NCBI GenBank assembly: GCA_050287605.1 | Contig: JBNKCG010000018.1 | Span: 43,291-107,290 of the forward strand | DNA from: Gammaproteobacteria bacterium | GTDB lineage: Bacteria > Pseudomonadota > Gammaproteobacteria > QQUJ01 | DNA: 64,000 nucleotides | Direction: 5' to 3' | In this document: one piece after another, positions 2,156 to 44,017 of the stretch | Layout: each line of letters opens with the position of its first letter | How positions within the stretch are numbered: the first letter of the stretch is position 1 | Translations under genes and position numbers: made by a program | Notes under the pieces: generated by a model | The model's input: only the letters and a program-made list of their open reading frames with translations | Databases searched by the model: none | Told to the model about the DNA's origin: nothing

Positions 2156-4141
2156 TCACTGAATCACACGAAACGCTTCTGCCTCGATAAACACCTTGAC
2201 CAACCGCTGATCGATCTTTCCGGCCGCCACCTCTTTGTGGAGAATATCCAACGCCTGGTCTTCCGGCAGGCCCCGTTTGTAGGGCCGATCGCCCGCAGTC
2301 AGCGCATCGTAGATGTCCGCAACGGTCATGATCTTTGACTGCAGCGGAATCTCATCGGTGCCCAACCCCAACGGGTAACCAGAGCCATCGAGTTTTTCGT
2401 GATGCGCATAGGCGATGCTCGCCACGTTTTGCAGCGTCCCGCTCCACGGAATCAAACTGAGGAACGCATAGGTGTGGCTGACGTGGGATTCGATCTGCAG
2501 ACGCTCGTCGGGGCTGAGACTCCCCTGCGCGGCGGTGAGATCGGAGAACTCGAAATCCTCGAGGATGGGCGCATCGCCGCCATCCTCAACGGGGAACGTG
2601 TACGAAAGCAGTTCGCTGAGTTCCGTAGGCACCTCCCGACGCGATACCGTGGGTTCGTTGCTCTTCACCACCAACTGCAGAAAATGGTCAAGGCGATCGC
2701 GCTCTTTGACCAACGCGTCTTCCGTGGCCCGGCGCATCTCGAGCAGCTCTTTCGGGCTCAGCGACCCTTGCTCGTGCAGCTGAATCAGTTTCTTGTACGC
2801 GCGTCGTTCCAAGCTCGCCCGCGCATAGGCAAACCGCTGTTTGATCAGCGTGAGCTGGTGCGGATAGAGCTTCTTCGGCTTGGTCAAAACATGCTCGCGA
2901 ACGCCAACCTTGCCGAAATCGTGCAACAGGGCTGCGTAGCGCAGCTCGCGCATCTGATCGGGGGAGAACTGCACCTGCTTCAGACCGTGACCCGATGCTC
3001 GGTCCACCGCCGCCGCCAAGCGCTCGGTGTATTCGGCGACTCGGAACGAGTGTCCCGCCGTGACGGGATCTCGTGCTTCAATGGCCTGAACGGAGGCCCG
3101 AATGAAGCTCTCGAACAGCTCCTCGATATCCGAATACAATTGCGCATTGCGCACGGCTATCCCCGCCTGCGCGCAGATCCCGGTCAGGATCTCCAGATCG
3201 GCCTGTTCAAACGCCTTGGGATCGGTGGTGCTGTCGACCTGAATCAGGCCGAGAACCTCGTCGCCCACCAATAACGGCGCGCACATCATGCTGCGCAGCG
3301 ACAGGTTGATGATCGAATCGCGAGCCCCGAAGCGCTCATCGCCCATGGCGTCCACCGACAGAATGGCCTGTTTGTGCGCTACCACCTGCTCGACGATAGT
3401 GCTCGAAATGGCGATCTCACTGTCATGCTCTCCCGCTGCCCCCCGGGTCTTCTGGGCGACGGGTATCAGCTGCTCTTTATCCCGCGAACGTAACAGCACA
3501 AACGCGCGCTCGGCCCCGGGAAATATGTCAAAGATGTAATCCAGCATCTTTTGCATCAGCGAGTCGCGGTCGTCCAACGCCCCCAGCGCCACACTGACCT
3601 GAGCCAGCGCCTGCAACCGGCGCAAGGCCACCGCCAGCGACTCATCGGCATGCTGATCAAGGGAGAAGCGGGCAAGGACACTCTTCGAAGCATCGAGCAT
3701 CACGCTCATCTGCCCCGGTGTACGGTCTTCGACCTTCAGCTCGGGATGGGAACTTTCGGAGTGGCGGCTGAACACCCCGCCCTTCGATCGCCCGGTCGTG
3801 GTCAGACCAACGCCAATGTGGGAGGTGTCCTTGATGTCTTCTCGGTAAACCAGCAAGGTCGACGAAATACGAATCTCGTCACCATCGTTCAGGGTATGCA
3901 CGCGGTTGGCGTCCAGGAGCGAACCATTGAGCAGGGTGCCGTTGGTAGACCCCAAATCTTCAAGGACATATCCCTTATTATTTGAGCGGATATGCGCGTG
4001 GCGCCGGCTCACCTGACCGTCGGGAAGCGGCAAAAATATGCGGGGATCGATCCCTTCCGGCGATCTTCCCAAATAGACCTCATCCGCGAGTTTAAAGACC
4101 CGCCCCGTATCGTGGCCTTCGCGGATTTGCAGGGTAGCCAT
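2156..4141 (-). CDS. FHA-GAF-HD-GYP multidomain c-di-GMP phosphodiesterase
   Basis: N-terminal FHA (GRSPEGIDPRIFLPLPDGQVSRRHAHI...GSTNGTLLNG); central GAF; C-terminal HD-GYP (HHEKLDGSGYPLGL). Confidence 0.85.
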   Translation of the reverse strand: MATLQIREGHDTGRVFKLADEVYLGRSPEGIDPRIFLPLPDGQVSRRHAHIRSNNKGYVLEDLGSTNGTLLNGSLLDANRVHTLNDGDEIRISSTLLVYREDIKDTSHIGVGLTTTGRSKGGVFSRHSESSHPELKVEDRTPGQMSVMLDASKSVLARFSLDQHADESLAVALRRLQALAQVSVALGALDDRDSLMQKMLDYIFDIFPGAERAFVLLRSRDKEQLIPVAQKTRGAAGEHDSEIAISSTIVEQVVAHKQAILSVDAMGDERFGARDSIINLSLRSMMCAPLLVGDEVLGLIQVDSTTDPKAFEQADLEILTGICAQAGIAVRNAQLYSDIEELFESFIRASVQAIEARDPVTAGHSFRVAEYTERLAAAVDRASGHGLKQVQFSPDQMRELRYAALLHDFGKVGVREHVLTKPKKLYPHQLTLIKQRFAYARASLERRAYKKLIQLHEQGSLSPKELLEMRRATEDALVKERDRLDHFLQLVVKSNEPTVSRREVPTELSELLSYTFPVEDGGDAPILEDFEFSDLTAAQGSLSPDERLQIESHVSHTYAFLSLIPWSGTLQNVASIAYAHHEKLDGSGYPLGLGTDEIPLQSKIMTVADIYDALTAGDRPYKRGLPEDQALDILHKEVAAGKIDQRLVKVFIEAEAFRVIQ

Positions 4142-4538
4142 GATCCTTACTCAAACCCCTTGCTCGTCAACCTCAACTATTACAACATCAACTGCGCGCA
4201 AGTTACCATAAATATTGGTTAAGTTCCCCAGTCATTCCGTTTGAATCTTGACGGTATCAGTCTGGTCGGGCAATCACACACTATGTTAGAGTAACGGCCA
4301 TAAACCCGCGCAGGAACGAGGTGTTAGGTGCGCCGTCGGGTAAATCACCAATGGTGCAGATGGAATTCGACCAGATCAACTGCCCCGCACCCTCCACCCC
4401 GCAACAAAAAGCGGAATCGCGCAACCGTCTGAGGCCCTGCTCGCCGTTGACAATCCAGGGTATTCTTAAACCGAATTAATGTTAACCGGGCGGGAGTCTG
4501 CGTCTTCCTGCCGACAGGGATTTGTGGGGAAAACCACT

Positions 4539-5006
4539 ATGGGGTCCGACAACCTGATCGTTCCGAAGCAACTGAGCCAGGTGACACTATGGGTTCATCC
4601 CGAAGGGATTGTCGAGGGGGCACTGTTCGTCAGTATCGAACACGACCCCACCAACCCCGAGGATCCTGAGGAGGTGCTCAACTACTCCTCCCCCTTTATC
4701 GTCGTTCGTCGCCAAGACCCCAGCGAGCTGCGGTTTTACAACAAAAGCTCCATCGTGCGCGTCCACTACAGCGCCGACGAGCCGGACTCCGCTGCCACTG
4801 CGCGCCTGCGGTGCACCTTTCACATGATGGACGGCAGCCTGCTGCGAGGCGAGATCCGGCGCAGCCTACCGCCTGATCGTTCACGATTCTATGACTTCCT
4901 CAACCTGGAACAAGAGCGCTTTGCGAAAATCCACCTCGACGATGGCCAAGTGTGTCTGGTGAACAAATCCTACATCGTATGCGGTCTTGATGAGAGCGCG
5001 CGCTGA
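4539..5006 (+). CDS. hypothetical protein, first gene of the kinase/PilT operon
   Basis: ORF with GGGGAAAA ribosome-binding-like sequence before ATG 4539 (track ORF starts 4479); 58 bp upstream of the kinase gene; no confident domain call. Confidence 0.5.
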   Translation: MGSDNLIVPKQLSQVTLWVHPEGIVEGALFVSIEHDPTNPEDPEEVLNYSSPFIVVRRQDPSELRFYNKSSIVRVHYSADEPDSAATARLRCTFHMMDGSLLRGEIRRSLPPDRSRFYDFLNLEQERFAKIHLDDGQVCLVNKSYIVCGLDESAR

Positions 5007-5063
5007 ATGACGCTCATGACGAAACCGACCGATCCTGCTGCGACCGGCGACTAGCGGCTGACT

Positions 5064-7514
5064 ATGGGAATTCTGGACGGAATCCGCATCAACAAAGCGG
5101 TCGCGACCATCGTCAAGGCCAAGAGCGCCGCGACACCTGAGGTTGCCGACGCCATTTTCCAACTGAAGCAGGTCGGCGAAGGCGCCGCCGAAAAGCTCAT
5201 CGATGCCCTCGGTCGTACCCGCACCCCTGGCACCGTGGTGGCCGTACTGGGCACGTTTCTCGACAATTCCACACTGCACCACTTCGCCAACGCCCTGAGC
5301 AGCAAGGACACCACTGTCGTCGACGGTGTCGCCAAAGTTCTCAGCGCTGGCAAGCGCTACGACCCCAACCTGCTGCTGGACGTCTACGCCGACCCCACCA
5401 GCCCCAAAGGATTGCTCTCGCGCATCCTGCTCGCCCAGCGCGAGCGATTGAACATCCGATCGCTGTTACGACTGATGGGTCGCATTCCGCCCGAAGCACG
5501 CAGCGGCGTATTCCGCATGATGGAGGAGATCGCCAGCCCGGAGAATGTCAACGATCTCATCGGTTTCGTCGACAGCGAAGACCCGGTGATCCGCCTGCAC
5601 ACCGCGCGCGTCCTGCGACGCTTCAGTACCGAAGCCGTTCGCGACGCACTGATGAAACTGCTGGGCGACCAGGCCAAGGCCGTGCGGTTGGAGGCGCTGA
5701 CGGGGCTAGGTGACATGAGCATACCGGTGGACGTGAAACCCATCTGCAAAATGTTGCGCGACGCGGACATGACTGTGCAGAGCAAGGCCATCGACACAGT
5801 GATACGCATCAACTCGCCCGACTCCGTCCACTACCTGCTGGAGATACTGCAGGACGATTCCGAGTACGTGCGCCGCGCCGCGGTGGAGGTGCTCAACGAG
5901 GTTGGCAACACCAACGCCATCAAGGATCTCATCGGCGCCCTGCGCGACAAGGACTGGTGGGTACGGGTGCGTGCCGCCGACGCATTGGGGAGCATCGGCG
6001 GTCCGCGGGTGGTCGAATCCGTCCTCTCGCTGGTCAAGGACGAAGATGAATTCATCCGCCGTTTCGCCATCGAAATCCTCAACTCCACCAAAGACAGCCG
6101 CGCCAAGAATTATTTGGAGGAGGCACTCAAGGACGAGGATTGGTGGGTGCGCGAACGGGCAGTGGATGCCCTCGCGGCCATCGGCGATTCCTCGGCCGTT
6201 CCGAAACTGGTCGATCTGATGAAACGCGACAATCGTGCCGCTCCCGTCGTGATCAAGGCACTGGCCTCAATGGGCGACAACCGGGCGGTCAAACCCATCA
6301 TGGAGATGCTGCACAACCCCGACACCGGGGTGCGCAAAGAGGCGCTGCGCGCCCTGGCCGTTCTTGCTGATGAGGAAAACGTCGACGAGGTCAGGCGTGC
6401 CGCGCAGGAGCTGTGCAACTCCTCCAACGACGATATCCGGGCGCTCGCCGACACCACCGTCAGCACCTTGATCACCAAGCCGCTGGCGCAACGCAAGAAA
6501 GGCGCCGCCGAGGAACCGGTGCGCACCGGCTCGACCATGCTCCAGGTTCGCTCCATGCTGGGAATGGAGACACCGAGCAATGCCAGCGATGTCACCATCG
6601 TATCCGACGTCACACCGCCGAGCGCCCAATCCACCCCTGCTGCGGCAGGCGCTATCGATGCGGCAAAACTCAAGGCCGGCGAAGTCCTCGCGGACCGCTA
6701 CCGCGTCATCCGACACATCGGGCGCGGCGCTTTTGGCGTGGTGGTGCTGGTGCAGGACATAATGGTCCATGAAGATATCGTCTTGAAGTTCATCACCCCG
6801 CAGCTCACCTCCTCCGAAGACGTCATCAAACGCTTCGTGCTGGAGATGAAATACGCCCGCAAGATCACGCACGAAAACGTCATCCGCATCTACGACTTCG
6901 TCACCTTCGGCAACTCCTACGCGATGTCCATGGAGTACTTCGAGAGCCACTCCCTGGCAGCGGAGCTCAAATCCGGCAAACCGATGACGCTGCAGCGTGG
7001 ACTGCGCATTCTGCGCGACATCTGCTCCGGAATGATCATCACCCATCGCGGCAACCTGGTACACCGCGACCTCAAACCCTCGAACATCCTCATCGACGAC
7101 AACGATCTGGTTAAAATCGTCGATTTCGGTCTCGCGGCCGCGGCGCGTGAAGGCGAGTCCCGGCTGACCAAGACCGGAATCATCCTCGGCACGCCAACCT
7201 ACATGGCACCCGAGCAGGTCAAAGGCGCCAAAGTCGACGCCCGCACCGATGTCTACAGTCTCGGCATCATCATGTACGAGATGTTCACCGGCCGTCCGCC
7301 TTATGTGGCCGACGATCCGATGGGAATCCTGTTTCAGCACATGGAGGGCAAGGCCAAGCCGCCCCGCGAGGTCAATCCCGAGATTCCCGAAGAGCTCGAT
7401 GCTCTGATCCGCAAAGCCATCGCCCGCAAGCCGGACAATCGCTTCGCCAATATGGAAGAATTGCGCCAAGCCGTCGAACTGCTGCTCAAGCAGCTGGGGG
7501 ATGAGGCGTCATGA
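5064..7514 (+). CDS. HEAT-repeat (PBS-lyase type) Ser/Thr protein kinase
   Basis: Repeated DKDWWVRVRAADALGSIG / DEDWWVRERAVDALAAIGD HEAT motifs; C-terminal Hanks kinase (GRGAFGVV, HRDLKPSNILI, DFGLA, GTPTYMAPE). Confidence 0.85.
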   Translation: MGILDGIRINKAVATIVKAKSAATPEVADAIFQLKQVGEGAAEKLIDALGRTRTPGTVVAVLGTFLDNSTLHHFANALSSKDTTVVDGVAKVLSAGKRYDPNLLLDVYADPTSPKGLLSRILLAQRERLNIRSLLRLMGRIPPEARSGVFRMMEEIASPENVNDLIGFVDSEDPVIRLHTARVLRRFSTEAVRDALMKLLGDQAKAVRLEALTGLGDMSIPVDVKPICKMLRDADMTVQSKAIDTVIRINSPDSVHYLLEILQDDSEYVRRAAVEVLNEVGNTNAIKDLIGALRDKDWWVRVRAADALGSIGGPRVVESVLSLVKDEDEFIRRFAIEILNSTKDSRAKNYLEEALKDEDWWVRERAVDALAAIGDSSAVPKLVDLMKRDNRAAPVVIKALASMGDNRAVKPIMEMLHNPDTGVRKEALRALAVLADEENVDEVRRAAQELCNSSNDDIRALADTTVSTLITKPLAQRKKGAAEEPVRTGSTMLQVRSMLGMETPSNASDVTIVSDVTPPSAQSTPAAAGAIDAAKLKAGEVLADRYRVIRHIGRGAFGVVVLVQDIMVHEDIVLKFITPQLTSSEDVIKRFVLEMKYARKITHENVIRIYDFVTFGNSYAMSMEYFESHSLAAELKSGKPMTLQRGLRILRDICSGMIITHRGNLVHRDLKPSNILIDDNDLVKIVDFGLAAAAREGESRLTKTGIILGTPTYMAPEQVKGAKVDARTDVYSLGIIMYEMFTGRPPYVADDPMGILFQHMEGKAKPPREVNPEIPEELDALIRKAIARKPDNRFANMEELRQAVELLLKQLGDEAS

Positions 7515-8608
7515 CGGCGCGCATCGACGCCTTTCTGCAACTGGGTCGGGAACAGGGTTGTTCCGACATACACCTAGCGGTCGGCACCCCCCCTATCCTG
7601 CGCCTTCACGGAGAGCTGACGCCGGTACGCTACCGGGATCTCGACATCGATGAACTGGAGCGGCTCGTCGACGAAATCCTCAACGACGAACAACGCACCC
7701 ATTTCAACAGCGGCGGCGATCTCGATCTCTCTTATGAGAGCGAGTCGGCTGGACGATTTCGCGTCAACCTGTTTCGTAAAATGGGAGGACTGGGCGCCAG
7801 CTTTCGCGTCATTCCCGCAGATATCCCAACGCTCGACAGCCTCAATCTGCCGCCTGTCGTAGAAAAGTTCACCGAATTGCACCAGGGTTTGGTGCTGGTT
7901 ACCGGAGCGACGGGAACGGGCAAGACCACCACCCTCTCGGCGCTGATCCACCACATCAATCAACGTCGCAAACTCAACATCATCACGCTCGAAGACCCTA
8001 TTGAATTCGTACATCAGAGCGCCGAATCGTTGATCGTGCAGCGTGAAGTCGGTGTGCACGTGCCCAGTTTCGCCGAGGGCCTGAGAGCGGCATTGCGCGA
8101 AGACCCCGACATTATCCTGGTAGGCGAGCTGCGCGACCTGGAGACGGTGAATCTGGCCATGGTGGCAGCGGAAACCGGGCACTTGGTGCTCGGCACGCTG
8201 CATACCACAACGGCAACCAAGACCCTTGATCGCATCATCGACGCCCTGCCCGTCGAGCAAAAACTTCAAGGTATGACGTCGTTGTCGCAAAACTTGCGCG
8301 CCGTCATCAGCCAATCCCTGGTGCGCACCCCCGACGGGCGTGGTCGCAAGGCCATCTGCGAGATCATGGTCATGACCCAGGCGATCTCCCATCTGCTGAT
8401 GAGCGGCAAGGTGTTTCAGATTCCCAGTAAGCTGCAAACCGGGCGCGATCGCGGCATGCAACTACTCGATCAGGCGCTATTGGAGGCGGTGCAAGCGAAA
8501 GAGATCGACCCGGACGACGCCTACCGCCACGCGGTGGACAAGAAGCAGTTCCAGCGCTTCGTCACCGATCCCAGCCTGCTACCCACGGTGAGTTTGGTTG
8601 GACAATAG
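7511..8608 (+). CDS. PilT-family hexameric ATPase, divergent paralogue
   Basis: PilT-like N-domain; Walker A GATGTGKTTT (canonical PilT has GPTGSGKSTT); ATGA overlap with the kinase stop. Confidence 0.85.
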   Translation: MTARIDAFLQLGREQGCSDIHLAVGTPPILRLHGELTPVRYRDLDIDELERLVDEILNDEQRTHFNSGGDLDLSYESESAGRFRVNLFRKMGGLGASFRVIPADIPTLDSLNLPPVVEKFTELHQGLVLVTGATGTGKTTTLSALIHHINQRRKLNIITLEDPIEFVHQSAESLIVQREVGVHVPSFAEGLRAALREDPDIILVGELRDLETVNLAMVAAETGHLVLGTLHTTTATKTLDRIIDALPVEQKLQGMTSLSQNLRAVISQSLVRTPDGRGRKAICEIMVMTQAISHLLMSGKVFQIPSKLQTGRDRGMQLLDQALLEAVQAKEIDPDDAYRHAVDKKQFQRFVTDPSLLPTVSLVGQ

Positions 8609-9728
8609 CGGCAGCATGGAAACCCCCGACGCCACCCCCTCCACCACCAGCGCTGCGATTCAGCATCGCATCGACTCCTTTCTCGAGCTGGTGGTGAAGC
8701 AAGGGGGATCGGATCTCCACCTGGTCTCCGGCAATCCGCCTCGCATTCGGCTGTTCGGCGAAGTGCTAAGCATCAAATATCGGTCTCTATCCCCCGACGA
8801 GACCCTGGACCTGCTCTACGAGATCATGCCGCCCATGGCGAAACGCACCTTCGAGAGCGTACACGGGGTCGACTTTGCCTACGAGATACCCGGCATGTCG
8901 CGCTTTCGCGTCAACGCCTTTCGCCACCTCGGCGGCATCGGTGCGGTGTTTCGCGTGATTCCCAGCAAAGTCCCCAGCCTCGACTCCATGCATCTGCCAC
9001 CCATCTGCCGCACGCTGTGCGAACAACGTAAAGGTCTGGTGCTGGTCACCGGCCCCACCGGATCGGGTAAATCAACCACCTTGGCGGCGATGGTGGATCA
9101 CATCAACGAAATGCGTAAAGCGCATATCATCACCATCGAAGACCCCATCGAATATCTGCACGACCGCAAGAACTGCCTGATCAGTCAACGCGAAGTGGGC
9201 ATCCATACCGAGAGCTTCGCCGCCGCACTACGCTCGGCGGTTCGCGAAGATCCCAACGTGCTGCTGGTGGGCGAGATGCGCGACTTGGAAACCATTCATC
9301 TCGCCGCAACGGCTGCAGAGACCGGCATCCTGGTAATGGGGACACTGCACACTAACGGTGCAGCCGCCGCAGTGGACCGCATGATCAACGTCTTCGCCGC
9401 CAAAGAGCAGGCGCTGATCCGTACCATCCTGTCAACGTCGTTGGTGGGCGTCTTGTCCCAGCAACTGGTAAGACGCGCCGATGGGCGGGGTCGCGTTGCA
9501 GCCATCGAAGTGATGCTGAACACCGCCGCCGCCTCCAATATGATTCGCGAAGGGAAAACCGAGCAACTCGCTAACGTTATCCAAGGCGGCGGGCTACTGG
9601 GTATGCAGAGCATGGACACGGCACTGCGGCGACTGCTGGACGCTAAACAGATATCGGGCACCGAGGCCTACATGAAGGCCAACAACAAAGCGGATTTTGC
9701 GCAGTACTGCGAAGACCCGCTGGAATAG
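8598..9728 (+). CDS. PilT/PilU-family twitching-motility-type ATPase
   Basis: GPTGSGKSTT Walker A; IITIEDPIEY; C-terminal ASNMIREGK...GMQSMD matches the PilT AIRNLIRE motif; overlaps the upstream gene by 11 nt. Confidence 0.85.
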   Translation: MDNSGSMETPDATPSTTSAAIQHRIDSFLELVVKQGGSDLHLVSGNPPRIRLFGEVLSIKYRSLSPDETLDLLYEIMPPMAKRTFESVHGVDFAYEIPGMSRFRVNAFRHLGGIGAVFRVIPSKVPSLDSMHLPPICRTLCEQRKGLVLVTGPTGSGKSTTLAAMVDHINEMRKAHIITIEDPIEYLHDRKNCLISQREVGIHTESFAAALRSAVREDPNVLLVGEMRDLETIHLAATAAETGILVMGTLHTNGAAAAVDRMINVFAAKEQALIRTILSTSLVGVLSQQLVRRADGRGRVAAIEVMLNTAAASNMIREGKTEQLANVIQGGGLLGMQSMDTALRRLLDAKQISGTEAYMKANNKADFAQYCEDPLE

Positions 9729-9836
9729 CCATTCCCCGTTTTTACGTTGCCAGATGCGTTTTTTTGCAGATAATGGTCCGACGGGATTGAATTTCTGCAT
9801 TTGACGAATACCCGACTGCTGCGGGAGTAGAATTGC

Positions 9837-10511
9837 ATGGCCAAGCTGGTGATGACCCTGGACGGAGCGGTCATTAAAGAGATCAAGATCGACCGGGAGA
9901 CGTTGAGCATCGGACGCCGTCCCGGCAACGACGTGCAGCTCAACGATCTGGCCGTCAGCGGCCGCCACGCGCTGTTTAGCGCGATGCACAACACCTACAT
10001 CGAAGACCTGGGCAGCACCAACGGCACGCTGGTCAACGGCAAAAAGGTCAAAAAGGCCATCGTCAAACACGGCGACGTAATCCAGATCGGGGGGCACCAA
10101 TTCACCTACCTCACCAAGGAAGAGATGCCCTACGAACCCACCATGTTCCTCAAGGCCGAATTCGAGCCCACCATGACGTTGGATACCGACTCCGGGCAAC
10201 GGCAGGTGACGGCCGACCCGCGGGAAGAGGGAAGGCTGGGTGCGGTCAAGATCCTCAGCGGCCCCATGAAAGGGAAAGTGCTGGAGCTGCGCAAACCCTT
10301 CAATACCGTCGGCATCAACGGCGTCAAAGTGGCACTGATCTCACGCGAGAGTACCGGCTATACCATCCATGGCATCAAGAGCCGCAAGTTGCGTCGCGCC
10401 TCGGACCTGCCGACGGTCAACGGCGAACCGGTGGGTGATAGCAGCGTCCGCCTCCAAGAGAAGGACGTCATCGAAATGGTGGACACCAAGATGCAGTTCT
10501 ACTTCATGTAG
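9837..10511 (+). CDS. FHA-domain protein, possibly with a second degenerate FHA-like domain
   Basis: LSIGRRPGNDVQLNDLAVSGRHALF...GSTNGTLVNGKKV FHA signature; C-terminal half repeats a similar pattern (TVGINGVKV...VNGEPV). Confidence 0.8.
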   Translation: MAKLVMTLDGAVIKEIKIDRETLSIGRRPGNDVQLNDLAVSGRHALFSAMHNTYIEDLGSTNGTLVNGKKVKKAIVKHGDVIQIGGHQFTYLTKEEMPYEPTMFLKAEFEPTMTLDTDSGQRQVTADPREEGRLGAVKILSGPMKGKVLELRKPFNTVGINGVKVALISRESTGYTIHGIKSRKLRRASDLPTVNGEPVGDSSVRLQEKDVIEMVDTKMQFYFM

Positions 10512-18621: not shown

Positions 18622-19617
<996 letters not shown>

Positions 19618-19657
19618 TCACCGTCAGCGACGGCATTGCCGGTCGGAGGTACACCGC

Positions 19658-20179
19658 TCACTCGACGATGAGCACCCGCATCCCCGCCGGCACCTGCTCG
19701 AACAATGCGATCACGTCGTCGTTGCGCATACGGATGCAGCCGTGGGAGCCGGGCTCGCCCACGGGCTCGGTGTCGGGGCAGCCGTGGATGTAGATGAAGC
19801 GGCGCTGGGTATCGACCTCCCCCAGCCGGTTGCGCCCGGGCTCCAGCCCGCACAACCAGAGAATGCGGCTGAGAATCCAGTCGCGCCCCGGGTGTGCAGC
19901 CATCAGCTCGGACGTGCAGATCTCGCCGGTGGGACGGCGTCCCACGAACACCGCCCCGCGGGGCTGGTCGGCGCCGATTCTGGCACGCACCGTGTGCCAG
20001 CCGCGCGGCGTCTGCCCGCTGCCACTGAGTTCCCCGGCACCCGCCGCCGCAGTGGAGACCGGGTAGCTGAACCGACACCGACCTGCGCTGACGAACTCCA
20101 GCCGCTGGCGGCCCAGATCGATGCGCAAATAACGATCCGGGGTTGCGGCGGACTCGCTGCGCTCGCTTGTCACGTCCAC
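19658..20179 (-). CDS. L,D-transpeptidase (YkuD) catalytic-domain protein with no apparent signal peptide
   Basis: IHGCPDTEPVGEPGSHGCIRM active-site region; N-terminus MDVTSERSES is not hydrophobic. Confidence 0.7.
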   Translation of the reverse strand: MDVTSERSESAATPDRYLRIDLGRQRLEFVSAGRCRFSYPVSTAAAGAGELSGSGQTPRGWHTVRARIGADQPRGAVFVGRRPTGEICTSELMAAHPGRDWILSRILWLCGLEPGRNRLGEVDTQRRFIYIHGCPDTEPVGEPGSHGCIRMRNDDVIALFEQVPAGMRVLIVE

Positions 20180-20640
20180 TCCGGGTAGGGATGCTCGGCC
20201 AGGTAGGCGTTGAAAAACCGCACATCATCCGACACCTCCTCGCCTACCCACTGGGGAATGACGAAATGTTCGTCGGGTCGGCTCAATTCGATCTCCGCCA
20301 GCACCAAGCCGGCGTTGGGCCCTTCAAAACGATCCACCTCCCAGAGGTGTTCACCTGCCGGCACGAAAAAGCGACGCTTTTCGATGTGCCGCCCGGCGCA
20401 GTGGTGGTCGAGGAGCTGCCGAGCATCCTCGATGGGAATCGGATACTCGAACTCGGATCGCGCGATGCCCCGGGTTGGTCCTTTGACGGTAAGCCACGCT
20501 TGGTCGCCGGCAATGCGCACCCGCACGCTCGCCTCGGGCCCGCGCGCCAGATACCCTTGGCGTACCGGCACCGAGTTGACCGCCTGGTGCTCCCAGTCGT
20601 CGGATCGGGTGAGAAACTTGCGCTCGATTTCGACACCCAT
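20170..20640 (-). CDS. CYTH-domain protein (CyaB / thiamine-triphosphatase family)
   Basis: MGVEIERKFL N-terminal EXEXK signature of CYTH triphosphate-tunnel enzymes; 156 aa. Confidence 0.75.
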   Translation of the reverse strand: MGVEIERKFLTRSDDWEHQAVNSVPVRQGYLARGPEASVRVRIAGDQAWLTVKGPTRGIARSEFEYPIPIEDARQLLDHHCAGRHIEKRRFFVPAGEHLWEVDRFEGPNAGLVLAEIELSRPDEHFVIPQWVGEEVSDDVRFFNAYLAEHPYPEWT

Positions 20641-23572: not shown

Positions 23573-25600
23573 GTGATATTGAGTCACAGGTGGAGGGGAT
23601 CTGTGCGGAGAGTGGACGCTAACCTCGGCAAGCCGGCCTTGGCACGATGTGGACCGGGCGCGCTGTTGGGATTATTGCTGATCCAAGCCGGCGTTTCGGC
23701 TCACGCCGAGAACATCGACTTACCGGTCTCGGGAGAAGACGTCTACTTCGGGGAACTGCCCATTGTGCTATCCGCGACACGGCTCAACCAGCCGATCGCC
23801 GAGGCACCGGTGGCCGTCACCGTTATTGACCGGGAAATGATCGAAGCCTCGGGTGCGCGCGAACTGGCCGATGTGTTTCGCCTGGTGCCGGGATTCTTGG
23901 TAGGGTCTTTTGACGGTCACCAGCGTTCCGTCGGCTATCACGGATTGCTCGACAGCTTCAACCGCCGCATGCAGGTGTTGGTGGACGGACGGTCGGTCTA
24001 TACCCCCACCTTCGGTGGCGTCCGCTGGAGCGATCTGCCGCTGGCGCTCGAAGATATCGAACGCATCGAAGTGGTGCGTGGACCCAATGCAGCCACCTAC
24101 GGTCCCAACTCCTTCATGGGCATCGTGAGTATCACGACGCGCCACGCCGCCGACACGCCGGGAACGCTGGTGAAGGCCGCCGCGGGTGACCCGGACTATG
24201 GCTCCGTCCTGGTGCGCAACGGGACTAATTTCGGCGACCTTGATCTACGGGTTACGATTCAGACAGATCGCGACACCGGATTTCCCGGCGTCGAAGACAC
24301 CAAACAGACCGATCGCCTCAATGTACGGGCCGACTATCAAGCCACCGCGCGGGATAACTTCGTGCTCAACACCGGGTACAGCGCTGGACCTCGCCGCGAA
24401 GGCGAAGCCACCGACACCAATCCCACGCGCAATATCGACGCCGAAAGCTATTACGTCCAAGGCCATTGGCGTCGAACACTTAGTCCCAACGAAGAGATCA
24501 GCATCCAGTTCTATCGCAACAGTTTCAAATCCGAGGATACGTTTTTTGCCACCAGCGGCCCACTTTCCGGCGAAATCGATTTCGGCCGCGAAGGCCGACG
24601 CACCGACATCGAACTGGAACACACCCTGATTCCCAGTGATACGGTGAAGATTGCTTGGGGTGCGGAGTTGCGGCGAGATCAGGGGCTGTCAAATAATATG
24701 TTCATCGGAGGCGATTACGCCAACGATGTCAAACGCCTGTTCGGCAACGTGGTGTGGGAGTTCGTACCCGGCACCATACTCAACACCGGTGCAATGATCG
24801 AGAAAAACGACCTGACCGGAACCGATATCTCTCCTCGCATTGCCCTGAACCATCGCATCAATTCAAACCACAGCGTGCGGATAACCGCTAGCCACGCTAC
24901 CCGAACACCCTCCCTCTTCGAAGGCGCCGTCGATTTCTACCACATCCTCGATTTTGGCGGCACCCCGGTGATACTGCAGAACTACCTGACCACCGACCGG
25001 CTCAAACCCGAACAAATCGATTCCATTGAGTTCGGGTACATCTTCGACCTTCCACGAAAAGGCGTTAACGGAGATATAAAACTATTCCGCGAACGTATTC
25101 GCGACCTTATCTCGGACGACACGTTCACGCTGATCACTAGTCATGGCTTACCCAACATAGGTGGTGAATCCTCTACCTTTGGCAACGTCGACAGCGCCAC
25201 GATAGACGGCGTCGAGGCGCAAATCGAGTGGCGTCCCGACAGTCGGAATCGAATCATCGCGGGAGGCGCTCTTCTTCACGCCGAAAGCGACAACATCGCC
25301 GAGGAGTATTCCAAGACTGTTCCCTCAGCCATTGTCAATTTATTGTGGATTCATCGCTCCCTGACCGGCCTGTCGACTGGGGTTTCGTACTACTACACCG
25401 ACGAGTGTCGATACCTAGGAGGAGATCAAATCGATGCCGTCAGCCGGCTGGATTTTCGAGTCTCCCAAAAGTTCGGCCCCCGCAACAATGCCGGCGAAAT
25501 CGCGTTTGTCTTTCAAAATATTTTCGGAAATTACTCGGATTTCTCCGAGACAAACACCATGGACCAGCGTGCTTACGTTAGCTTGAGCACACAGTATTAG
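23573..25600 (+). CDS. TonB-dependent outer-membrane receptor
   Basis: Signal peptide, plug domain (EAPVAVTVIDREMIEASGARELADVFRLVPG), long beta-barrel with C-terminal aromatic residue. Confidence 0.8.
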   Translation: MILSHRWRGSVRRVDANLGKPALARCGPGALLGLLLIQAGVSAHAENIDLPVSGEDVYFGELPIVLSATRLNQPIAEAPVAVTVIDREMIEASGARELADVFRLVPGFLVGSFDGHQRSVGYHGLLDSFNRRMQVLVDGRSVYTPTFGGVRWSDLPLALEDIERIEVVRGPNAATYGPNSFMGIVSITTRHAADTPGTLVKAAAGDPDYGSVLVRNGTNFGDLDLRVTIQTDRDTGFPGVEDTKQTDRLNVRADYQATARDNFVLNTGYSAGPRREGEATDTNPTRNIDAESYYVQGHWRRTLSPNEEISIQFYRNSFKSEDTFFATSGPLSGEIDFGREGRRTDIELEHTLIPSDTVKIAWGAELRRDQGLSNNMFIGGDYANDVKRLFGNVVWEFVPGTILNTGAMIEKNDLTGTDISPRIALNHRINSNHSVRITASHATRTPSLFEGAVDFYHILDFGGTPVILQNYLTTDRLKPEQIDSIEFGYIFDLPRKGVNGDIKLFRERIRDLISDDTFTLITSHGLPNIGGESSTFGNVDSATIDGVEAQIEWRPDSRNRIIAGGALLHAESDNIAEEYSKTVPSAIVNLLWIHRSLTGLSTGVSYYYTDECRYLGGDQIDAVSRLDFRVSQKFGPRNNAGEIAFVFQNIFGNYSDFSETNTMDQRAYVSLSTQY

Positions 25601-25627: not shown

Positions 25628-26605
25628 ATGTGGTTACGGATGCACAGCCGAGTTTTCATAGAGTTGTTACAACCGCGAGGTCGCCGACTTGCGACAAGCG
25701 TTGTCTTGTTCATTCTTGTGTTTCCAGTTTCTTTCTCCGTCTTCGCCGACACCACGAAAATAGGGATTCTCTATTCTGAGCACTCTGCTGCACAGAGTGA
25801 AGTGGTACACGAGATTGAGCGGATATTGCAGCAATCGCTGGTCAATAGCATTTCAGTGACGACGATCAAAATCGAAAGCAGCACCGTCGACTCACTATTG
25901 AAAGCACCGCGGGATCTTATTATTACTGTTGGCCTAGAAGCTGCACTGCTCTGCCGCGACCGATGCAAAGCAACCTCACTACTGCGAGCACTAATTCCGA
26001 AACGCACTGCCGAATCGGTCCTCCTCAACAATGCAGACGTGCGGGTATATGACATCTATCTCGACCAACCCGTCCCTCGCCTCATGCGACTACTGAAACT
26101 CGCCCTCCCCTACGACAACAACGTTGCGGTGCTTTTGGGTCCCTCTTCGTCATCGCTGGAGAGTGATTTGGGGCGAGCGGGAAAAAACCATGGCCTAACC
26201 TTGCATATTGAAAAAGTCTCCGACCAATCGGAACTGATCACTGCGCTCGAACGTTTGCTCAAGCAGAGCCAAGTCCTGCTCGCCGTGCCGGATCCTCTAA
26301 TATACAACCGGTTTACGGTTCAGAAGATATTGTTAACTACCTACCGGCACCAGATTCCCGTCGTATCATTTTCCGCCGCCCTGGTCCGCGCCGGCGCTTC
26401 AATAGCAGTATATTCATCGCCCGATCAAATAGGGCGGCATATCGGCGAAATCGCCGTCCGCATCGTGGGAAAACAGAATCCACCCCAATCGAGCTTTCCG
26501 TTGTATTACTCCGTCACCACCAACCACCAAGTTGCCCGTTCGCTCGGCCTCAATCTACCTGCCGATGAGTCATTGCTGGACATGCTGTTGGCACACGAAA
26601 GGTAG
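25628..26605 (+). CDS. periplasmic binding protein (ABC_sub_bind-like) partnered with the downstream hybrid kinase
   Basis: Signal peptide/TM then ~300-aa periplasmic-binding-like fold; 7-bp gap to the kinase gene. Confidence 0.55.
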   Translation: MWLRMHSRVFIELLQPRGRRLATSVVLFILVFPVSFSVFADTTKIGILYSEHSAAQSEVVHEIERILQQSLVNSISVTTIKIESSTVDSLLKAPRDLIITVGLEAALLCRDRCKATSLLRALIPKRTAESVLLNNADVRVYDIYLDQPVPRLMRLLKLALPYDNNVAVLLGPSSSSLESDLGRAGKNHGLTLHIEKVSDQSELITALERLLKQSQVLLAVPDPLIYNRFTVQKILLTTYRHQIPVVSFSAALVRAGASIAVYSSPDQIGRHIGEIAVRIVGKQNPPQSSFPLYYSVTTNHQVARSLGLNLPADESLLDMLLAHER

Positions 26606-26611: not shown

Positions 26612-29600
26612 GTGAGCCTGGGTATCCGCAGACGCGTACTCCTTGTCGCCCTGGTGCCGGCGCTGGTAATTTCGTTGTTCATGCTGAGCTATTTCGTTGC
26701 CAGCAGGCTTGATGCCGCAGAAGAAAATCTAAAAGACCGCGGACAGAGTTTCGCACATCAGCTCGCGTCGATGAGTGAATACGCCGTATTTTCCGGCAAT
26801 CTCGCGTATCTTAGATTTCCAGGCGTAAGCGTTCAAATCAACGAAGATCCTGATATTCGAGCCGCAATCATCCGTGACGCAAGCGGATTGGTTTTGATGA
26901 CGTATGGCGAGACCACCGCCCACCTTGGAGAGGTGCGACTGGTCGAATCAAACGGGACACCGACCAAAACCGACTACGGGACCATATTGATCAATCAACC
27001 CATAGAGTTGACTTCTGTAGTGGTCAACGATTTTGAAGAAGACTCATCCGCATCCAATAGTGGCAAAAAACCCTCTTCTCCCCAACTCGGGTGGGTGACG
27101 GTTGAAATGTCACTGGACGCCTTACGCGCAGAACAACGCCAAATCGTTGCACGAGCCATCGCGTTCCTTCTCGGTGGATTGTTGTTGAGCGCATGGGTCG
27201 CTCACCGAATGAGTCGTGGAGTGGTCGACCCAATACTCTCTCTAACAAACGCAGTTCGCAGTATCGAGGCGGGCGATTTAACAACTCGCGTTCCGCTGAG
27301 CGCTGAGGGTGAGCTACTGGAGCTGGAATCCGGCATCAATCGTATGACGTCGTCGTTACAAACGGCTCAGGAGCGTTTGCAGGAGCAGGTGCAAAACGCC
27401 ACCGAAGGGCTGCGCAACTCGTTAGAAGCGCTCGCGGTACAGGAGTCGCGGTACCGCGAGCTAGTACAGAACGCGAACAGTTTCATCATGAAGCTGGACC
27501 CTGAAGGACGAATCTTATACGTCAACCCTTATGCTGAAACGTATCTCGGTATCTCCTCCGAACACCTATTGGGCAGAGACGTGATCGGGACGGTATTTCC
27601 CGTTCAAGCAACTGCATCGATTTCCGCCATGGTACGTGACCCCGACAATGTAATGATCCCCGACGACATCACCATAGCGAAGGACCGTCGCCGTGTGTAC
27701 GTGAGTTGGTCCAATCGCCCGGTTCTCGATATCGATGGAAAACTCGTAGATATTATCTGCATCGGTCACGACATTACCGAACGTCGCACCATCGAAATCG
27801 CTATGGAGCTGCTCGCTTCCGCCGGAGGCGCGGAGAATACCGTATTCGATGATATCGCCCGAGCAACCCAGGTCGGTCTCGATTCCGTCGCCGCGTACGT
27901 TGTTTCCATAAATACTGAAACGGAAGTGTCACTGCTCGGTTTTTGGCATCGTGATCTCCAGTCCCGCATTGATATTGCCGACTCCGGGTTGGCCGATATT
28001 CTCCAGTATGCGCTACACGAAGGAATCCGACGTCTCGAGTTAGCCCGACTGGGACGAAAAGATCTAGACCGCTTCTTCACCGCAAGCGATGCGACGTCAC
28101 TGATACTGGAGCGTGTTGCGGAATCACCCGACACCGAAGATGTCTGGTTAATTGCCACTGACAAAATTCCCCTCGTTCTTGCGCCCGCGCGACAGGCATT
28201 CTTGCATTTGGTGTCACGGCGCACCGGCATCGAAATCCATCGCATTTATGCCGAACGTGAACTATCCGATGCGCGCGATCAAGCGCTGATGGCCTCCAGG
28301 GTAAAAAGTGAGTTTCTCGCCAACATGAGCCACGAAATACGTACTCCTATGAACGGAATCGTGGGATTTACCAATCTCTTGCTGCGCAGCCGGCTCACCC
28401 GCGAGCAACACAACTACGTTTCAACAGTGAGAAAGTCCGCCCACAGTCTGCTAGCGATTATCAACGACGTACTCGATCTCTCGAAGATCGAATCAGGGAA
28501 ACTGAAAATAGACGAAACCCCCTTCGATCTTCGCGAATGCGTTGAGGACGCCATATCCCTTCTGGCTCCCTCGGCATCCGAAAAAGGCCTAGAGTTGGTA
28601 ACGCTGATTTATGCCGACGTGCCTTGTCAACTCATCGGCGATCCAATACGGATTCGTCAAGTGCTCATCAACCTAGTTGGCAATGCGGTCAAATTTACGA
28701 ACCAAGGTACAGTCGCGATTCGAGTCATGCTCGAGGAGCGCAGCGGCGACGAGGTCACATTGGAGCTACGAGTAACCGACACGGGCATCGGGCTGAGTAC
28801 CGAGGACCAACACAGACTGTTCACGGCGTTCACCCAAGCAGATACCTCTGAAACCCGTCGATTTGGGGGAACCGGTCTAGGATTGGCCATTTCGAAGAAA
28901 TTGATTGAACAGATGAATGGCGAAGTCGGGTTGGAAAGCGAACTCGGTGCAGGCTCAAGTTTTTGGTTCAAATTACCCCTTAAGTGTGACACCGAGATCG
29001 ACCCCAAGATTCCCACCCGACCAAACCCACTTGCGGGGATGCGCTCCCTCTTGTTCGACAGCCAAGATCTTTCCCGCCTTGCACTACGCCACACTCTCGA
29101 GTCTTTCGGATTATTGGTCGACGAGGCGTCCAATTTTGACCAGGCAATCGGTTTGATCAATCGATCCGCAGAGTCACGCCTCCACTATGACGCGGCAGTT
29201 GTGGGACTAACGCGTGCTCAAATGGGAGGCGATGACTGTCGTTCGTTCTATCGGCACGTGGATCAAATCTCACATACACCTGTCATTGTTTTATCCGGCG
29301 CAATGGCTCATGAAGAGATAAGCGAACAATGCGAGGAGTGCGTCTCGTTGTGCTTATCGAAACCCGTACGAACCGATCAACTCTATTTTCGCTTATGTGA
29401 CTTGTTAAGCGACACCAACGATCAATCGGTATCTCTTTCCTTCCGACACGACACCATTGCACACCCCGCCGTTGACGAGCTTCGTTTTTCCGGTCGTAGA
29501 GTACTGGTGGTCGAAGACAACCTGATCAACGCGCGACTGCTCACCATTCTGTTGCGCGACGCTGGAATCGTAGCCCACCATGTGACAACGGGATTTCAGG

Positions 29601-30268
29601 CCGTGGATCTCGCGCAACGCCAATCGTTCGATCTCATTTTGATGGATATACACATGCCAGAAATGAGCGGTTTACAGGCCGCAGAACAGATTCGCGCGAA
29701 TGAGCCACCCGGATCACACGTCCCTATTGTCGCGTTGACCGCCAACGCTCAACCACGCGAGCGCGAGCGCGCACTGAACGCAGGTATGGACGAGTTTATC
29801 TCGAAGCCCATAGACGAGAAGCTGCTTTGGAATATTTTCGAAAGTCTGCTTTCTCCTGGGACTCAGCATCCGCTGGATAGACAGACTACAGATCATGCCG
29901 ATTCATCACTTCCTACGCGAGACATCTCTGCAGCGATCCGCACAAGCGGGGGGAACAACCAACTATCCGAAGAACTATTTGAGATGTTACTGCGTCAACT
30001 CCCCGAACACATGCGGGCGATTCAGCAAATGTACGACAAGCGTCTGTGGCTGGAGTTACGGGAAGAGGTACATAAACTTCGCGGATCCGCCGCCTATTGC
30101 GCGTTACCCGGCCTCCTGAAGGCAACTCAGTCTTTTGAGGAGGCGCTTGCCACTAGTCCCGACGACACCGACTACACTGACATGGTTGCTCAAGTCTTTC
30201 ACGAAATCGATCGATTGCTGGTTGGTCGCCACTCAAAAAATGCTACCGGAAACGCTCGTCCAACCTAA
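26612..30268 (+). CDS. hybrid sensor histidine kinase (TM-HAMP-PAS-HisKA-HATPase, degenerate REC, REC, Hpt)
   Basis: H-box FLANMSHEIRTPMNGI; N/G boxes LVGNAVKFT, DTGIGL, GGTGLGLAI; receiver RVLVVEDNLINA...DLILMDIHMP; C-terminal Hpt HKLRGSAAY. Confidence 0.9.
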   Translation: MSLGIRRRVLLVALVPALVISLFMLSYFVASRLDAAEENLKDRGQSFAHQLASMSEYAVFSGNLAYLRFPGVSVQINEDPDIRAAIIRDASGLVLMTYGETTAHLGEVRLVESNGTPTKTDYGTILINQPIELTSVVVNDFEEDSSASNSGKKPSSPQLGWVTVEMSLDALRAEQRQIVARAIAFLLGGLLLSAWVAHRMSRGVVDPILSLTNAVRSIEAGDLTTRVPLSAEGELLELESGINRMTSSLQTAQERLQEQVQNATEGLRNSLEALAVQESRYRELVQNANSFIMKLDPEGRILYVNPYAETYLGISSEHLLGRDVIGTVFPVQATASISAMVRDPDNVMIPDDITIAKDRRRVYVSWSNRPVLDIDGKLVDIICIGHDITERRTIEIAMELLASAGGAENTVFDDIARATQVGLDSVAAYVVSINTETEVSLLGFWHRDLQSRIDIADSGLADILQYALHEGIRRLELARLGRKDLDRFFTASDATSLILERVAESPDTEDVWLIATDKIPLVLAPARQAFLHLVSRRTGIEIHRIYAERELSDARDQALMASRVKSEFLANMSHEIRTPMNGIVGFTNLLLRSRLTREQHNYVSTVRKSAHSLLAIINDVLDLSKIESGKLKIDETPFDLRECVEDAISLLAPSASEKGLELVTLIYADVPCQLIGDPIRIRQVLINLVGNAVKFTNQGTVAIRVMLEERSGDEVTLELRVTDTGIGLSTEDQHRLFTAFTQADTSETRRFGGTGLGLAISKKLIEQMNGEVGLESELGAGSSFWFKLPLKCDTEIDPKIPTRPNPLAGMRSLLFDSQDLSRLALRHTLESFGLLVDEASNFDQAIGLINRSAESRLHYDAAVVGLTRAQMGGDDCRSFYRHVDQISHTPVIVLSGAMAHEEISEQCEECVSLCLSKPVRTDQLYFRLCDLLSDTNDQSVSLSFRHDTIAHPAVDELRFSGRRVLVVEDNLINARLLTILLRDAGIVAHHVTTGFQAVDLAQRQSFDLILMDIHMPEMSGLQAAEQIRANEPPGSHVPIVALTANAQPRERERALNAGMDEFISKPIDEKLLWNIFESLLSPGTQHPLDRQTTDHADSSLPTRDISAAIRTSGGNNQLSEELFEMLLRQLPEHMRAIQQMYDKRLWLELREEVHKLRGSAAYCALPGLLKATQSFEEALATSPDDTDYTDMVAQVFHEIDRLLVGRHSKNATGNARPT

Positions 30269-43158: not shown

Positions 43159-43944
43159 TTATTGGCGCCCCAGGGTATCGCGGTAGGCGTGCCACGTGGC
43201 GTGTCCGATCAGCGGCAACGCCACCAGCAACCCGAGCAGAAACGTCATCAAGCCAACGGCGGTAAAGGCCCCGATAATGGCCGCCCACAGCAGCATCGGC
43301 CGCGGATTGCGGCGCACCGCCTGCACGCTGAAGCGCACCGCGTCCAGAGCGTTGGTCGTCGTGTCCATCAGCAACGGCACCGAGAGCACGCTGATGGCAA
43401 ATACCGCCACCGCCAGCAAGCCGCCCATGACCACCGACGCCAGCAGCAGCGGGAACGAACTGGGCTGCAGGAACACCACGTTGATGAAGCTCTCCCAGGT
43501 GGGCGTCAGGCCTTGGTAAACCAAGGCGAACACCAGCGTCGCCAGCCGGATCCAGGCGACGAAGACCAGCATCAGAATCATGCCGAATGCGGCGATCTGC
43601 CCGCCGTTGTGGCGCCAGGCACCCAACGCATGCCGCAACGAAACCGGCTCCCCACGCTCCTGGCGCCGACTCACGTCGTACAGTCCCACCGCCACCACCG
43701 GGCCCACCAGGAAAAAACCGCTGATCAGGGGAAAAAACAGGTAGAAGAGCTGCGAATAGTAGATGACGCCGAACAGGAGGTAGCCGGCAATCACGAAGAT
43801 GAGACCGTAACTCAGGCTCACGGTGGGGGCCTGGCTCAAGTCGCGCCAACCTTTGGCCAGCCAGTTCCAGGGGTGATCCAGGGTCAGCTTCTGTACGCGA
43901 AACTGAGGAGCAGCGTGTTCGGAAAGCGTATCGGTCTGGGCCAT
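43159..43944 (-). CDS. integral membrane protein (DUF2189-like)
   Basis: Multiple predicted TM helices; no catalytic motifs recognised. Confidence 0.55.
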   Translation of the reverse strand: MAQTDTLSEHAAPQFRVQKLTLDHPWNWLAKGWRDLSQAPTVSLSYGLIFVIAGYLLFGVIYYSQLFYLFFPLISGFFLVGPVVAVGLYDVSRRQERGEPVSLRHALGAWRHNGGQIAAFGMILMLVFVAWIRLATLVFALVYQGLTPTWESFINVVFLQPSSFPLLLASVVMGGLLAVAVFAISVLSVPLLMDTTTNALDAVRFSVQAVRRNPRPMLLWAAIIGAFTAVGLMTFLLGLLVALPLIGHATWHAYRDTLGRQ

Positions 43945-44017
43945 GCTGTACTCCTCGCTACGGGGTGGAGGGTTTGCAGCCGTTTACCATACTACACCAC
44001 AATTCCTGGTACTTTTG

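Follow-up and report, generated by a model that had tools for sequence, protein, structure and literature searches.

The window analysed here, 64,000 nucleotides of contig JBNKCG010000018.1 from a Gammaproteobacteria bacterium (assembly GCA_050287605.1), carries six genes that encode a HEAT-repeat Hanks-type Ser/Thr kinase, two ATPases of the PilT family (ATPase1 and ATPase2), a small protein of two tandem Sm-like barrels, a tandem-FHA protein and, on the opposite strand, an FHA-GAF-HD-GYP phosphodiesterase (Table 1). This module is real and conserved in hundreds of environmental species. As the best explanation we propose, with moderate confidence, that the HEAT kinase and a dedicated PilT-like pair together with FHA readers and cyclic-nucleotide enzymes form a conserved chromosomal signalling module, which probably couples a motor of the pilus type to signalling by second messengers. 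All six genes had been named in a preliminary description made from the DNA sequence alone, and profile searches with Pfam and NCBIfam found them at the same positions and with the same domains.

Conservation and core of the module

Full-length relatives of the kinase, with about 800 aa and about 50% identity, number in the thousands, and a census with one genome per species gave at least 589 genomes with a relative. For the analysis of synteny we used 83 non-redundant loci, namely the best 80 together with those of Inmirania thermothiophila, a Methylomirabilis metagenome-assembled genome (MAG) and a Tectomicrobia MAG. The best 80 belong mostly to uncultured Gammaproteobacteria, plus one Burkholderiales, and the gammaproteobacterial groups sampled are Chromatiales, Thiohalophilus, Thioalkalispiraceae, Ectothiorhodospiraceae, Woeseiaceae and Competibacteraceae; I. 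thermothiophila (GCA_003751635.1) is the only cultured carrier identified, and its genome and the chromosome OZ241890.1 are examples of complete sequences with the module. In all counts the denominator comprises only those loci whose contig has room for the respective gene. Synteny of kinase and ATPase1 was found in 73/73 loci and that of ATPase2 in 71/71. The tandem-FHA gene is present in 53 of 63 loci (duplicated in 12), the small open reading frame (ORF) in 66/78 according to BLAST and in 76/89 according to hidden Markov model searches, and an FHA-HD-GYP gene is adjacent in 33 of 68, 28 of these being divergent FHA-GAF-HD-GYP genes. The stop codon of the kinase gene overlaps the start of ATPase1 in 46 of the 73 loci and the gap is at most 30 nt in 68 of them, while ATPase1 and ATPase2 are separated by a median of +13 nt. 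Reverse look-ups starting from one homologue of the small ORF and one FHA homologue led back to the same module, and the core of kinase, ATPase1 and ATPase2 was seen in at least three phyla, represented by the Gammaproteobacteria and the Methylomirabilis and Tectomicrobia MAGs. An arrangement that recurs in every one of the related loci is far beyond chance. As an outcome speaking against such a system, the preliminary description had named canonical pilT-pilU genes whose kinase and FHA neighbours are not conserved with them. The synteny of both ATPases, the co-conservation of the kinase, small ORF and FHA genes and the reverse look-ups show the opposite.

A kinase encoded next to NTPases might also be part of an anti-phage or conflict system, and the kinase domain indeed matches the PADLOC models for PD-T4-6, MADS6 and PglW. 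These matches cover the generic kinase domain only and the other five proteins gave no or trivial P-loop matches, so that the full component set of a PADLOC defence system was not found. No full-length member was found on plasmids or phages, the module occupies a stable chromosomal site between housekeeping genes with a GC content equal to that of its flanks, and the ATPases are highly conserved instead of diversifying. We therefore consider a role in defence very improbable.

In a Woeseiaceae-type clade the module consists of kinase, ATPase1 and ATPase2 only, inserted between mrp and metG. As this minimal form exists and the periphery is exchangeable in other loci (see below), we regard the kinase and a dedicated motor ATPase pair as the irreducible core, with the FHA readers and cyclic-nucleotide enzymes being modular outputs.

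The PilT-like ATPases and their small partner

Both ATPases score far above the cutoff of TIGR01420, the PilT/PilU family (426 bits for ATPase1 and 450 bits for ATPase2 with a cutoff of 319). Walker A, Asp box, Walker B and His box are conserved in 73 orthologues of ATPase1 and the same catalytic motifs in 70 orthologues of ATPase2, except for the first histidine of the His box, which is an isoleucine in 97% of the latter. The AIRNLIRE motif of canonical PilT is degenerate in both proteins and reads AIanLIlngK in ATPase1 and AvaNiIREGK (partly kept) in ATPase2, the arginine of AIR being lost in both. Within each ATPase group the identity amounts to 53–73%, even across phyla, compared with 41–52% between the groups as well as to Pseudomonas aeruginosa PilT (PaPilT) and Geobacter PilT4 (GmPilT4), and 35–38% to PilU (PaPilU, its sequence checked with PDB 9n32, and the PilU-like PDB chain 10my). 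In a bootstrapped neighbour-joining tree, which is a coarse test of orthology with PaPilT and GmPilT4 as the only two PilT references, ATPase1 and ATPase2 each form a clade (bootstrap 1.0 and 0.84) and are sisters with a value of 0.69, compared with 0.035 for a grouping of ATPase1 and PilU. As indicated by these separate clades and low identities, the two proteins are members of the PilT family that appear to be neither canonical PilT nor canonical PilU. The two seem to stem from an old duplication and to travel together with the kinase gene.

Two tandem PilT-family genes are also found in Pseudomonas, and ATPase1 and PilU have the Walker A variant GATGTGKS in common, so one could take the pair for ordinary pilT-pilU genes that merely lie beside unrelated signalling genes. 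The identities, the bootstrap values and the invariable presence of a kinase gene, often overlapping ATPase1, already contradict this, making it the case we put very little weight on. An identification of ATPase1 as PilU from its Walker A motif was likewise ruled out by identity and tree.

The window protein ATPase2 begins with a Thr/Ser/Pro-rich N-terminal tail, METPDATPSTTSAAIQH (8616-8666), while most orthologues are without a tail and begin with M-x-R-I/V-D. This tail may be a lineage-specific phospho-site or a mere artefact of the start codon. We rejected it as a conserved docking site for FHA domains, since only the window protein and one close relative carry it. T274 of ATPase2, one of several group-specific Ser/Thr residues, is invariant and stands in place of E258 of PaPilT; to call these residues phospho-sites would be too speculative.

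The small ORF (open from 4479 to 5006) matched no family above cutoff in Pfam or NCBIfam. Its product consists of two tandem Sm-like β-barrels showing the features of the Sm/Hfq-like fold, a five-stranded bent barrel with an N-terminal helix. The closest Pfam model is DUF6812 (PF20660), which scores 16.7 bits for the window protein compared with a gathering cutoff of 27.1, and a precomputed DUF6812 match exists for about a sixth of the small-ORF homologues listed. The family is thus related to DUF6812 but outside the reach of the model, and a full-text search of the literature for DUF6812 found only analogies. Distant relatives of the small ORF give a hint to its role, as two of three informative contexts show translational coupling to another PilT-family ATPase: in L091:187-1751 and L093:1286-3318 they overlap the start of an ATPase gene whose product carries an extra N-terminal region of about 170–180 aa, and no kinase is present. 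The third relative (L092) adjoins a gene for malic enzyme and not an ATPase. As this coupling occurs where no kinase is encoded, the small protein goes with the ATPases and not with the kinase, and we propose that it is a partner or adaptor of the PilT-like ATPases. It also resembles YaeO/Rof, which binds the hexameric ATPase Rho. A precedent for an Sm-fold protein on a pilus-type ATPase is Hfq, which according to a passage of PMC7690835 citing Schuergers et al. 2014 docks on PilB1 in Synechocystis and is needed for motility.

Phosphothreonine switch and proposed mechanism

The kinase contains about five HEAT_2 repeats (Pfam, 3.6e-54) forming a scaffold at residues 160–470 approximately (nt 5541-6473), followed by the C-terminal kinase domain (Pkinase, residues 546–798, 6.5e-53; nt 6699-7457). 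All elements expected for a Hanks-type kinase, namely the Gly-rich loop, catalytic Lys, HRDxKxxN, DFG and APE, were found, and G553/G555, K575, H667-R668-D669-K671-N674, D687-F688-G689 and P716-E717 are invariant in 24 diverse homologues. Judged by these motifs the enzyme is competent for catalysis. This cytoplasmic protein belongs to the RD kinases, T702 and T710 of its activation loop are invariant in the same 24 homologues, and the linker between HEAT repeats and kinase domain is variable in sequence and rich in Ser and Thr (21% compared with 10% in the remaining protein). Neither a membrane segment nor, besides the HEAT repeats, a sensor or ligand-binding domain was detected in it, and all six proteins of the module are soluble. 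Among orthologues the kinase is less conserved (42–50% identity) than the ATPases with their 53–73%.

The protein encoded downstream of ATPase2 had been described as FHA-only. Its FHA domain is real (Pfam, 5.2e-22; residues 1–95), but a second, degenerate FHA-like domain is present at residues 135–223, which aligns in register with the N-terminal FHA domain of the same protein (hhalign, probability 82%, E=1e-5) and is a β-sandwich in the AlphaFold2 (AF2) model. The residues for binding of phosphothreonine (pThr), GR, SxxH and (S/T)xNG, are conserved in the N-terminal domain and absent from the C-terminal one. Foldseek gave GarA/OdhI as top matches of the N-terminal domain with 36–38% identity. 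The linker between both domains is disordered (AF2 pLDDT <50 from residue 101) and starts with a segment in which Y99, E100, P101, T102, M103, F104, A107, E108 and T112 are invariant in 56 homologues. This YEPTMF segment resembles the phospho-site V-E-T-T22-S-V-F-R-A-D-F of GarA, whose sequence we verified in PDB 2kfu, making T102 a candidate phospho-acceptor by analogy and suggesting a cis/trans pThr switch in the tandem-FHA protein. The protein is not a member of the GarA/OdhI family itself, as its score with the NCBIfam model for OdhI is 59 with a cutoff of 200 and it has no N-terminal ETTS phospho-site.

The divergently encoded enzyme combines FHA (8.6e-16), GAF (5.4e-15) and HD/HD_5 (1.7e-32) domains. 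The HD and HHExxDGxGYP motifs for metal binding and as signature of HD-GYP enzymes are present, with HDFGK, HHEkLDGsGYP and DIyDALTaGDRPY conserved in 30 orthologues, so that the enzyme appears to be catalytically competent. The pThr-binding residues GR, SxxH and STNG of its FHA domain are conserved as well. We consider it an accessory and interchangeable output of the module, as its position is taken by FHA-EAL proteins in L004, L031, L060, L073 and L088, by FHA-GAF-cyclases in L005, L021 and L089 and by cyclase-FHA proteins in L058, L080 and L083. FHA-FHA and AAA-FHA proteins are further FHA-linked partners at this position, and an AAA_22 P-loop protein with a C-terminal FHA domain is encoded a few kb downstream in L008:18485-19744, with equivalents in L011 and L033. 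Of 38 loci without HD-GYP, 10 have a PP2C phosphatase as their upstream neighbour, and in L089 one lies 3' of ATPase2. The latter locus is the richest variant (L089:5797-17488), consisting of a divergent FHA-GAF-cyclase, small ORF, kinase, both ATPases, PP2C and an FHA-less GAF-HD-GYP, and a 133-aa gene with a faint pilin-like match (T2SSG) lies two genes away. An altered order is found in L086:3415-10041, where the small ORF comes after kinase, ATPase1 and ATPase2 and is itself followed by the oppositely oriented gene of a PatA_N-type response regulator, a class that reportedly acts on the type IV pilus motor in cyanobacteria.

The preliminary description had suggested a linear relay in which the kinase marks its target, the FHA-HD-GYP protein lowers cyclic di-GMP (c-di-GMP) and c-di-GMP directly controls both ATPases. 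A competent kinase, canonical FHA domains and an apparently competent HD-GYP enzyme are encoded side by side here and in 28 related loci, and with DgcB there is a precedent for an FHA-gated c-di-GMP enzyme (PMC6733907). The HD-GYP gene is missing in about half of the loci, where EAL proteins, cyclases for cyclic AMP (cAMP) or cyclic GMP, PP2C or, as in the minimal core, nothing is found instead, and so c-di-GMP cannot be an obligatory intermediate. In addition, only the T2SSE core and no recognisable c-di-GMP-binding domain was detected by Pfam in either ATPase, and the reported control by c-di-GMP concerns extension ATPases of the PilB/MshE type via their MshEN domain and not PilT (PMC10124867, PMC7690835). 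Because of the optional HD-GYP, its replacement by cyclases and the ATPases lacking a recognisable receptor domain, we disfavour the linear relay and regard it as improbable.

What is supported is a pThr/FHA switch around a dedicated motor pair. As kinase and both ATPases are invariant and often translationally coupled, a direct relationship between them is indicated, with the FHA-enzymes as interchangeable side outputs, and we favour the ATPase pair as partner or input of the kinase. In the mechanism that we propose, the HEAT scaffold of the sensor-less kinase would bind the co-translated ATPase1 and ATPase2, which we infer from their 100% co-occurrence and the overlap of start and stop codons. 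The kinase might then phosphorylate its own S/T-rich linker or activation loop and, following a logic as in GarA/OdhI, T102 of YEPTMF. These marks would be read by the canonical FHA domains, whose binding residues are present and whose partners are predicted: the tandem-FHA protein could act as a switchable adaptor, and the FHA-GAF-HD-GYP protein might be recruited or activated for c-di-GMP hydrolysis, as an FHA domain gates DgcB in Bdellovibrio. The tandem Sm-like protein would be an ATPase-binding accessory, judging from its separate linkage to other PilT-like ATPases. The outcome would be a joint switching of the local cyclic-nucleotide pool and of the activity or engagement of a specialised PilT-type motor, most likely an auxiliary one for the retraction of type IV pili. 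In other lineages the nucleotide output would be swapped for an EAL protein or a cyclase, and a PP2C phosphatase could reset the switch.

Several observations weigh against this interpretation. The degenerate AIRNLIRE motif of both ATPases and the changed His box of ATPase2 may point to an altered function, the Thr-rich tail of ATPase2 as a possible docking site is lineage-specific, and the assignment of the phospho-acceptor is a resemblance of short motifs and thus an analogy and not a proof. In the Woeseiaceae-type loci no FHA gene lies within 10 kb of the core, so reading by FHA domains is either not obligatory or encoded elsewhere. The flanks of about 90 loci and, among ORFs of at least 200 aa, the window contain no pilus genes, save for the pilin-like match in L089 and the PatA-type regulator in L086, and the link to type IV pili is therefore drawn from the family membership of the ATPases. 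The two ATPases and the Sm-like protein might hence be a cytoplasmic ATP-driven device independent of type IV pili that serves only the kinase/FHA unit, such as a motor for remodelling or translocation or a sensor of the nucleotide state. This alternative is possible, if doubtful: besides the missing pilus genes and the motif changes, it agrees with the separation of both clades from PilT and PilU of known structure and with the resemblance of the Sm-like partner to a binder of Rho. In Pseudomonas, though, the canonical pilT-pilU loci are typically distant from other pil genes as well, both ATPases keep Walker A/B and Asp box with scores far above the PilT/PilU cutoff, and their conservation relative to the kinase fits a contact with a conserved machine.

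Within the signalling module that we prefer, the PilT-like pair might itself be the sensor, with the HEAT domain reading the nucleotide state or the engagement of a retraction motor of the pilus type, the kinase writing pThr and the FHA-enzymes changing c-di-GMP or cAMP. We hold this to be rather unlikely. If it were true, the module would be a hard-wired surface-sensing system from motor activity to second messenger, separate from chemosensory systems of the Pil-Chp type, and the tandem Sm-like ring protein would represent a new class of cofactor for PilT ATPases.

The locus and its relation to known systems

The features of the locus are collected in Table 1. The shared ATGA of kinase and ATPase1, described before as an overlap of 4 nt, can be read directly in the sequence. 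The overlap of 11 nt proposed for the two ATPase genes is doubtful, as it requires a TTG start, whereas the gene caller used the in-frame ATG on an identical contig, leaving a gap of 7 nt that fits the pattern of the family; the two genes are tightly packed even then. For the small gene the ATG listed is most likely the start, rather than the upstream end of its open frame.

Table 1: Features of the module, with positions in the window.
Feature	Position	Strand	Remarks
FHA-GAF-HD-GYP phosphodiesterase	2156..4141	-	divergent from operon; Pfam FHA, GAF, HD, HD_5
Divergent intergenic region	4142..4538	.	presumed promoters of both transcription units, from position only
Small tandem Sm-like protein, 155 aa	4539..5006	+	ORF open from 4479; ATG start
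HEAT-repeat Hanks-type Ser/Thr kinase	5064..7514	+	Pfam, NCBIfam
ATPase1, PilT family	7511..8608	+	TIGR01420; start overlaps kinase stop (ATGA)
ATPase2, PilT family	8616..9728	+	TIGR01420; ATG start; alternative TTG start at 8598
Tandem-FHA adaptor, 224 aa	9837..10511	+	Pfam FHA, hhalign, AF2 model, Foldseek
YEPTMF motif, residues 99-104 (T102)	10131..10148	+	candidate phospho-acceptor; start of disordered linker

No pilus genes were found among the ORFs of at least 200 aa in the 64-kb window, in agreement with the preliminary description; short pilin-sized ORFs were not scanned exhaustively. The window contained no Rfam or tRNA match. For the divergent intergenic region we rejected the idea of an RNA element such as a c-di-GMP riboswitch, since Rfam gave nothing there at E≤1. 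A consensus scan for σ70 promoters and for terminators was uninformative, as it did not rise above shuffled controls. The stretch that immediately precedes the HD-GYP gene on its upstream side, 2-2143, encodes a rhodanese protein together with a GAF-HisKA_3 histidine kinase and a LuxR-type response regulator (978-1643), a trio that also flanks the module in I. thermothiophila (L002) and could reflect lineage synteny or a functional link. The rest of the window is housekeeping and includes cysG, serS, rarA, ftsK, trxB-like, cysK-like, a TonB receptor, a hybrid kinase, pdxJ, era, lepB, lepA, degP-like, rseB, nadB, sdhA, lysS, prfB-like, recJ, thrC-like and hom. Between 23500 and 36000 the GC content drops to 0.53–0.55 from 0.60–0.70 elsewhere, in a block that includes core genes: it encodes a TonB-dependent receptor (23573-25600), an SBP-like protein (25628-26605) and a 1218-aa sCache-HAMP-PAS-HisKA-HATPase-REC-Hpt hybrid kinase (26612-30268), followed by pdxJ, era, lepB and lepA. 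An HDOD-domain protein (5.3e-45) is encoded at 49377-50219, about 40 kb from the module, and three long ORFs without a Pfam match at 1e-5 (43943-45499, 518 aa; 62619-63626, 335 aa; 19590-20228, 212 aa) may be real genes or spurious ORFs of GC-rich DNA. One metagenomic contig carries an AbiEi/AbiEii toxin-antitoxin pair together with a Y1 transposase immediately downstream of the module (L088:16492-18400), which is probably incidental.

The arrangement had not been recognised as a described system, and full-text searches of the literature bore this out, giving only the analogies T6SS pathway, Arn, GarA/OdhI, DgcB and PilT-PilU stacking. The parts belong to known families, while no description appears to exist of their conserved combination, of the two clades of ATPases or of the tandem Sm-like partner. 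With kinase, likely phospho-acceptor, pThr readers, cyclic-nucleotide enzymes and dedicated motor pair in one operon, the module offers a compact and biochemically tractable system for the control of PilT-family ATPases by Ser/Thr phosphorylation. It bears on the regulation of motors for pilus retraction and on the route from pilus activity to c-di-GMP or cAMP signals, for which nearly all work has been done in Pseudomonas, Vibrio and Myxococcus. Furthermore, it provides a first context for the tandem Sm-like, DUF6812-related proteins, a family without literature, and a candidate class of kinases for FHA-gated c-di-GMP enzymes such as DgcB whose kinases are unknown.

In kind the module resembles known cases of Ser/Thr-kinase/FHA control over an ATPase machine of the secretion superfamily. 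In the H1 type VI secretion system (T6SS) of P. aeruginosa a threonine phosphorylation pathway consists of the kinase PpkA, the PP2C phosphatase PppA and Fha1, and binding of pThr by the FHA domain controls assembly and recruitment. As in this pathway, the genes for a Hanks kinase and an FHA scaffold, joined in some lineages by one for a PP2C phosphatase, accompany those of a machine driven by a hexameric ATPase. In contrast, the module has PilT-family ATPases instead of ClpV, its FHA proteins carry cyclic-nucleotide enzymes, and its kinase is soluble with a HEAT domain and not a membrane receptor kinase. No T6SS families were found among the genes of window or flanks, and the scores with the T6SS TagH-type FHA model TIGR03354 are 31.6–36.9 with a cutoff of 120. 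The archaeal Arn network, in which the FHA protein ArnA and the kinases ArnC and ArnD regulate the archaellum (PMC5300886, PMC5007285), is similar in placing a type-IV-pilus-like motor system under the control of Hanks-type kinases and an FHA protein, and the FHA domain of ArnA is among the fold matches. It differs from the module as it acts mainly on expression of the archaellum operon, shares no operon with the motor ATPase and has no cyclic-nucleotide enzymes.

The PilT/PilU pairs of type IVa pili in P. aeruginosa and V. cholerae, which work as stacked hexamers (bioRxiv 10.1101/2025.10.30.685630), are likewise adjacent TIGR01420 ATPases with intact Walker A/B and Asp box. Unlike them the module has no PilU orthologue; its ATPases form module-specific clades, probably sisters, with degenerate AIRNLIRE and are always encoded with a Ser/Thr kinase gene, often overlapping. 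GarA/OdhI, which go with PknB/PknG in Actinobacteria, are small FHA proteins as well and the closest structural match of the FHA domain, and the flexible E-x-T-x-hydrophobic-hydrophobic-basic-A-acidic-F segment is like the phospho-site of GarA. In the module this motif is C-terminal to the FHA domain and followed by the second degenerate one, and there is no link to 2-oxoglutarate metabolism. Finally, in DgcB (FHA-GGDEF) from Bdellovibrio the FHA domain is also fused to a c-di-GMP enzyme and gates the diguanylate cyclase via a phosphopeptide; the kinase acting on DgcB is unknown, and pilus-dependent invasion is part of its biology (PMC6733907). In the module the enzyme is instead a phosphodiesterase (HD-GYP or EAL) or a class III cyclase, and as it has no N-terminal tail the pThr ligand must come in trans, with a kinase being encoded alongside.

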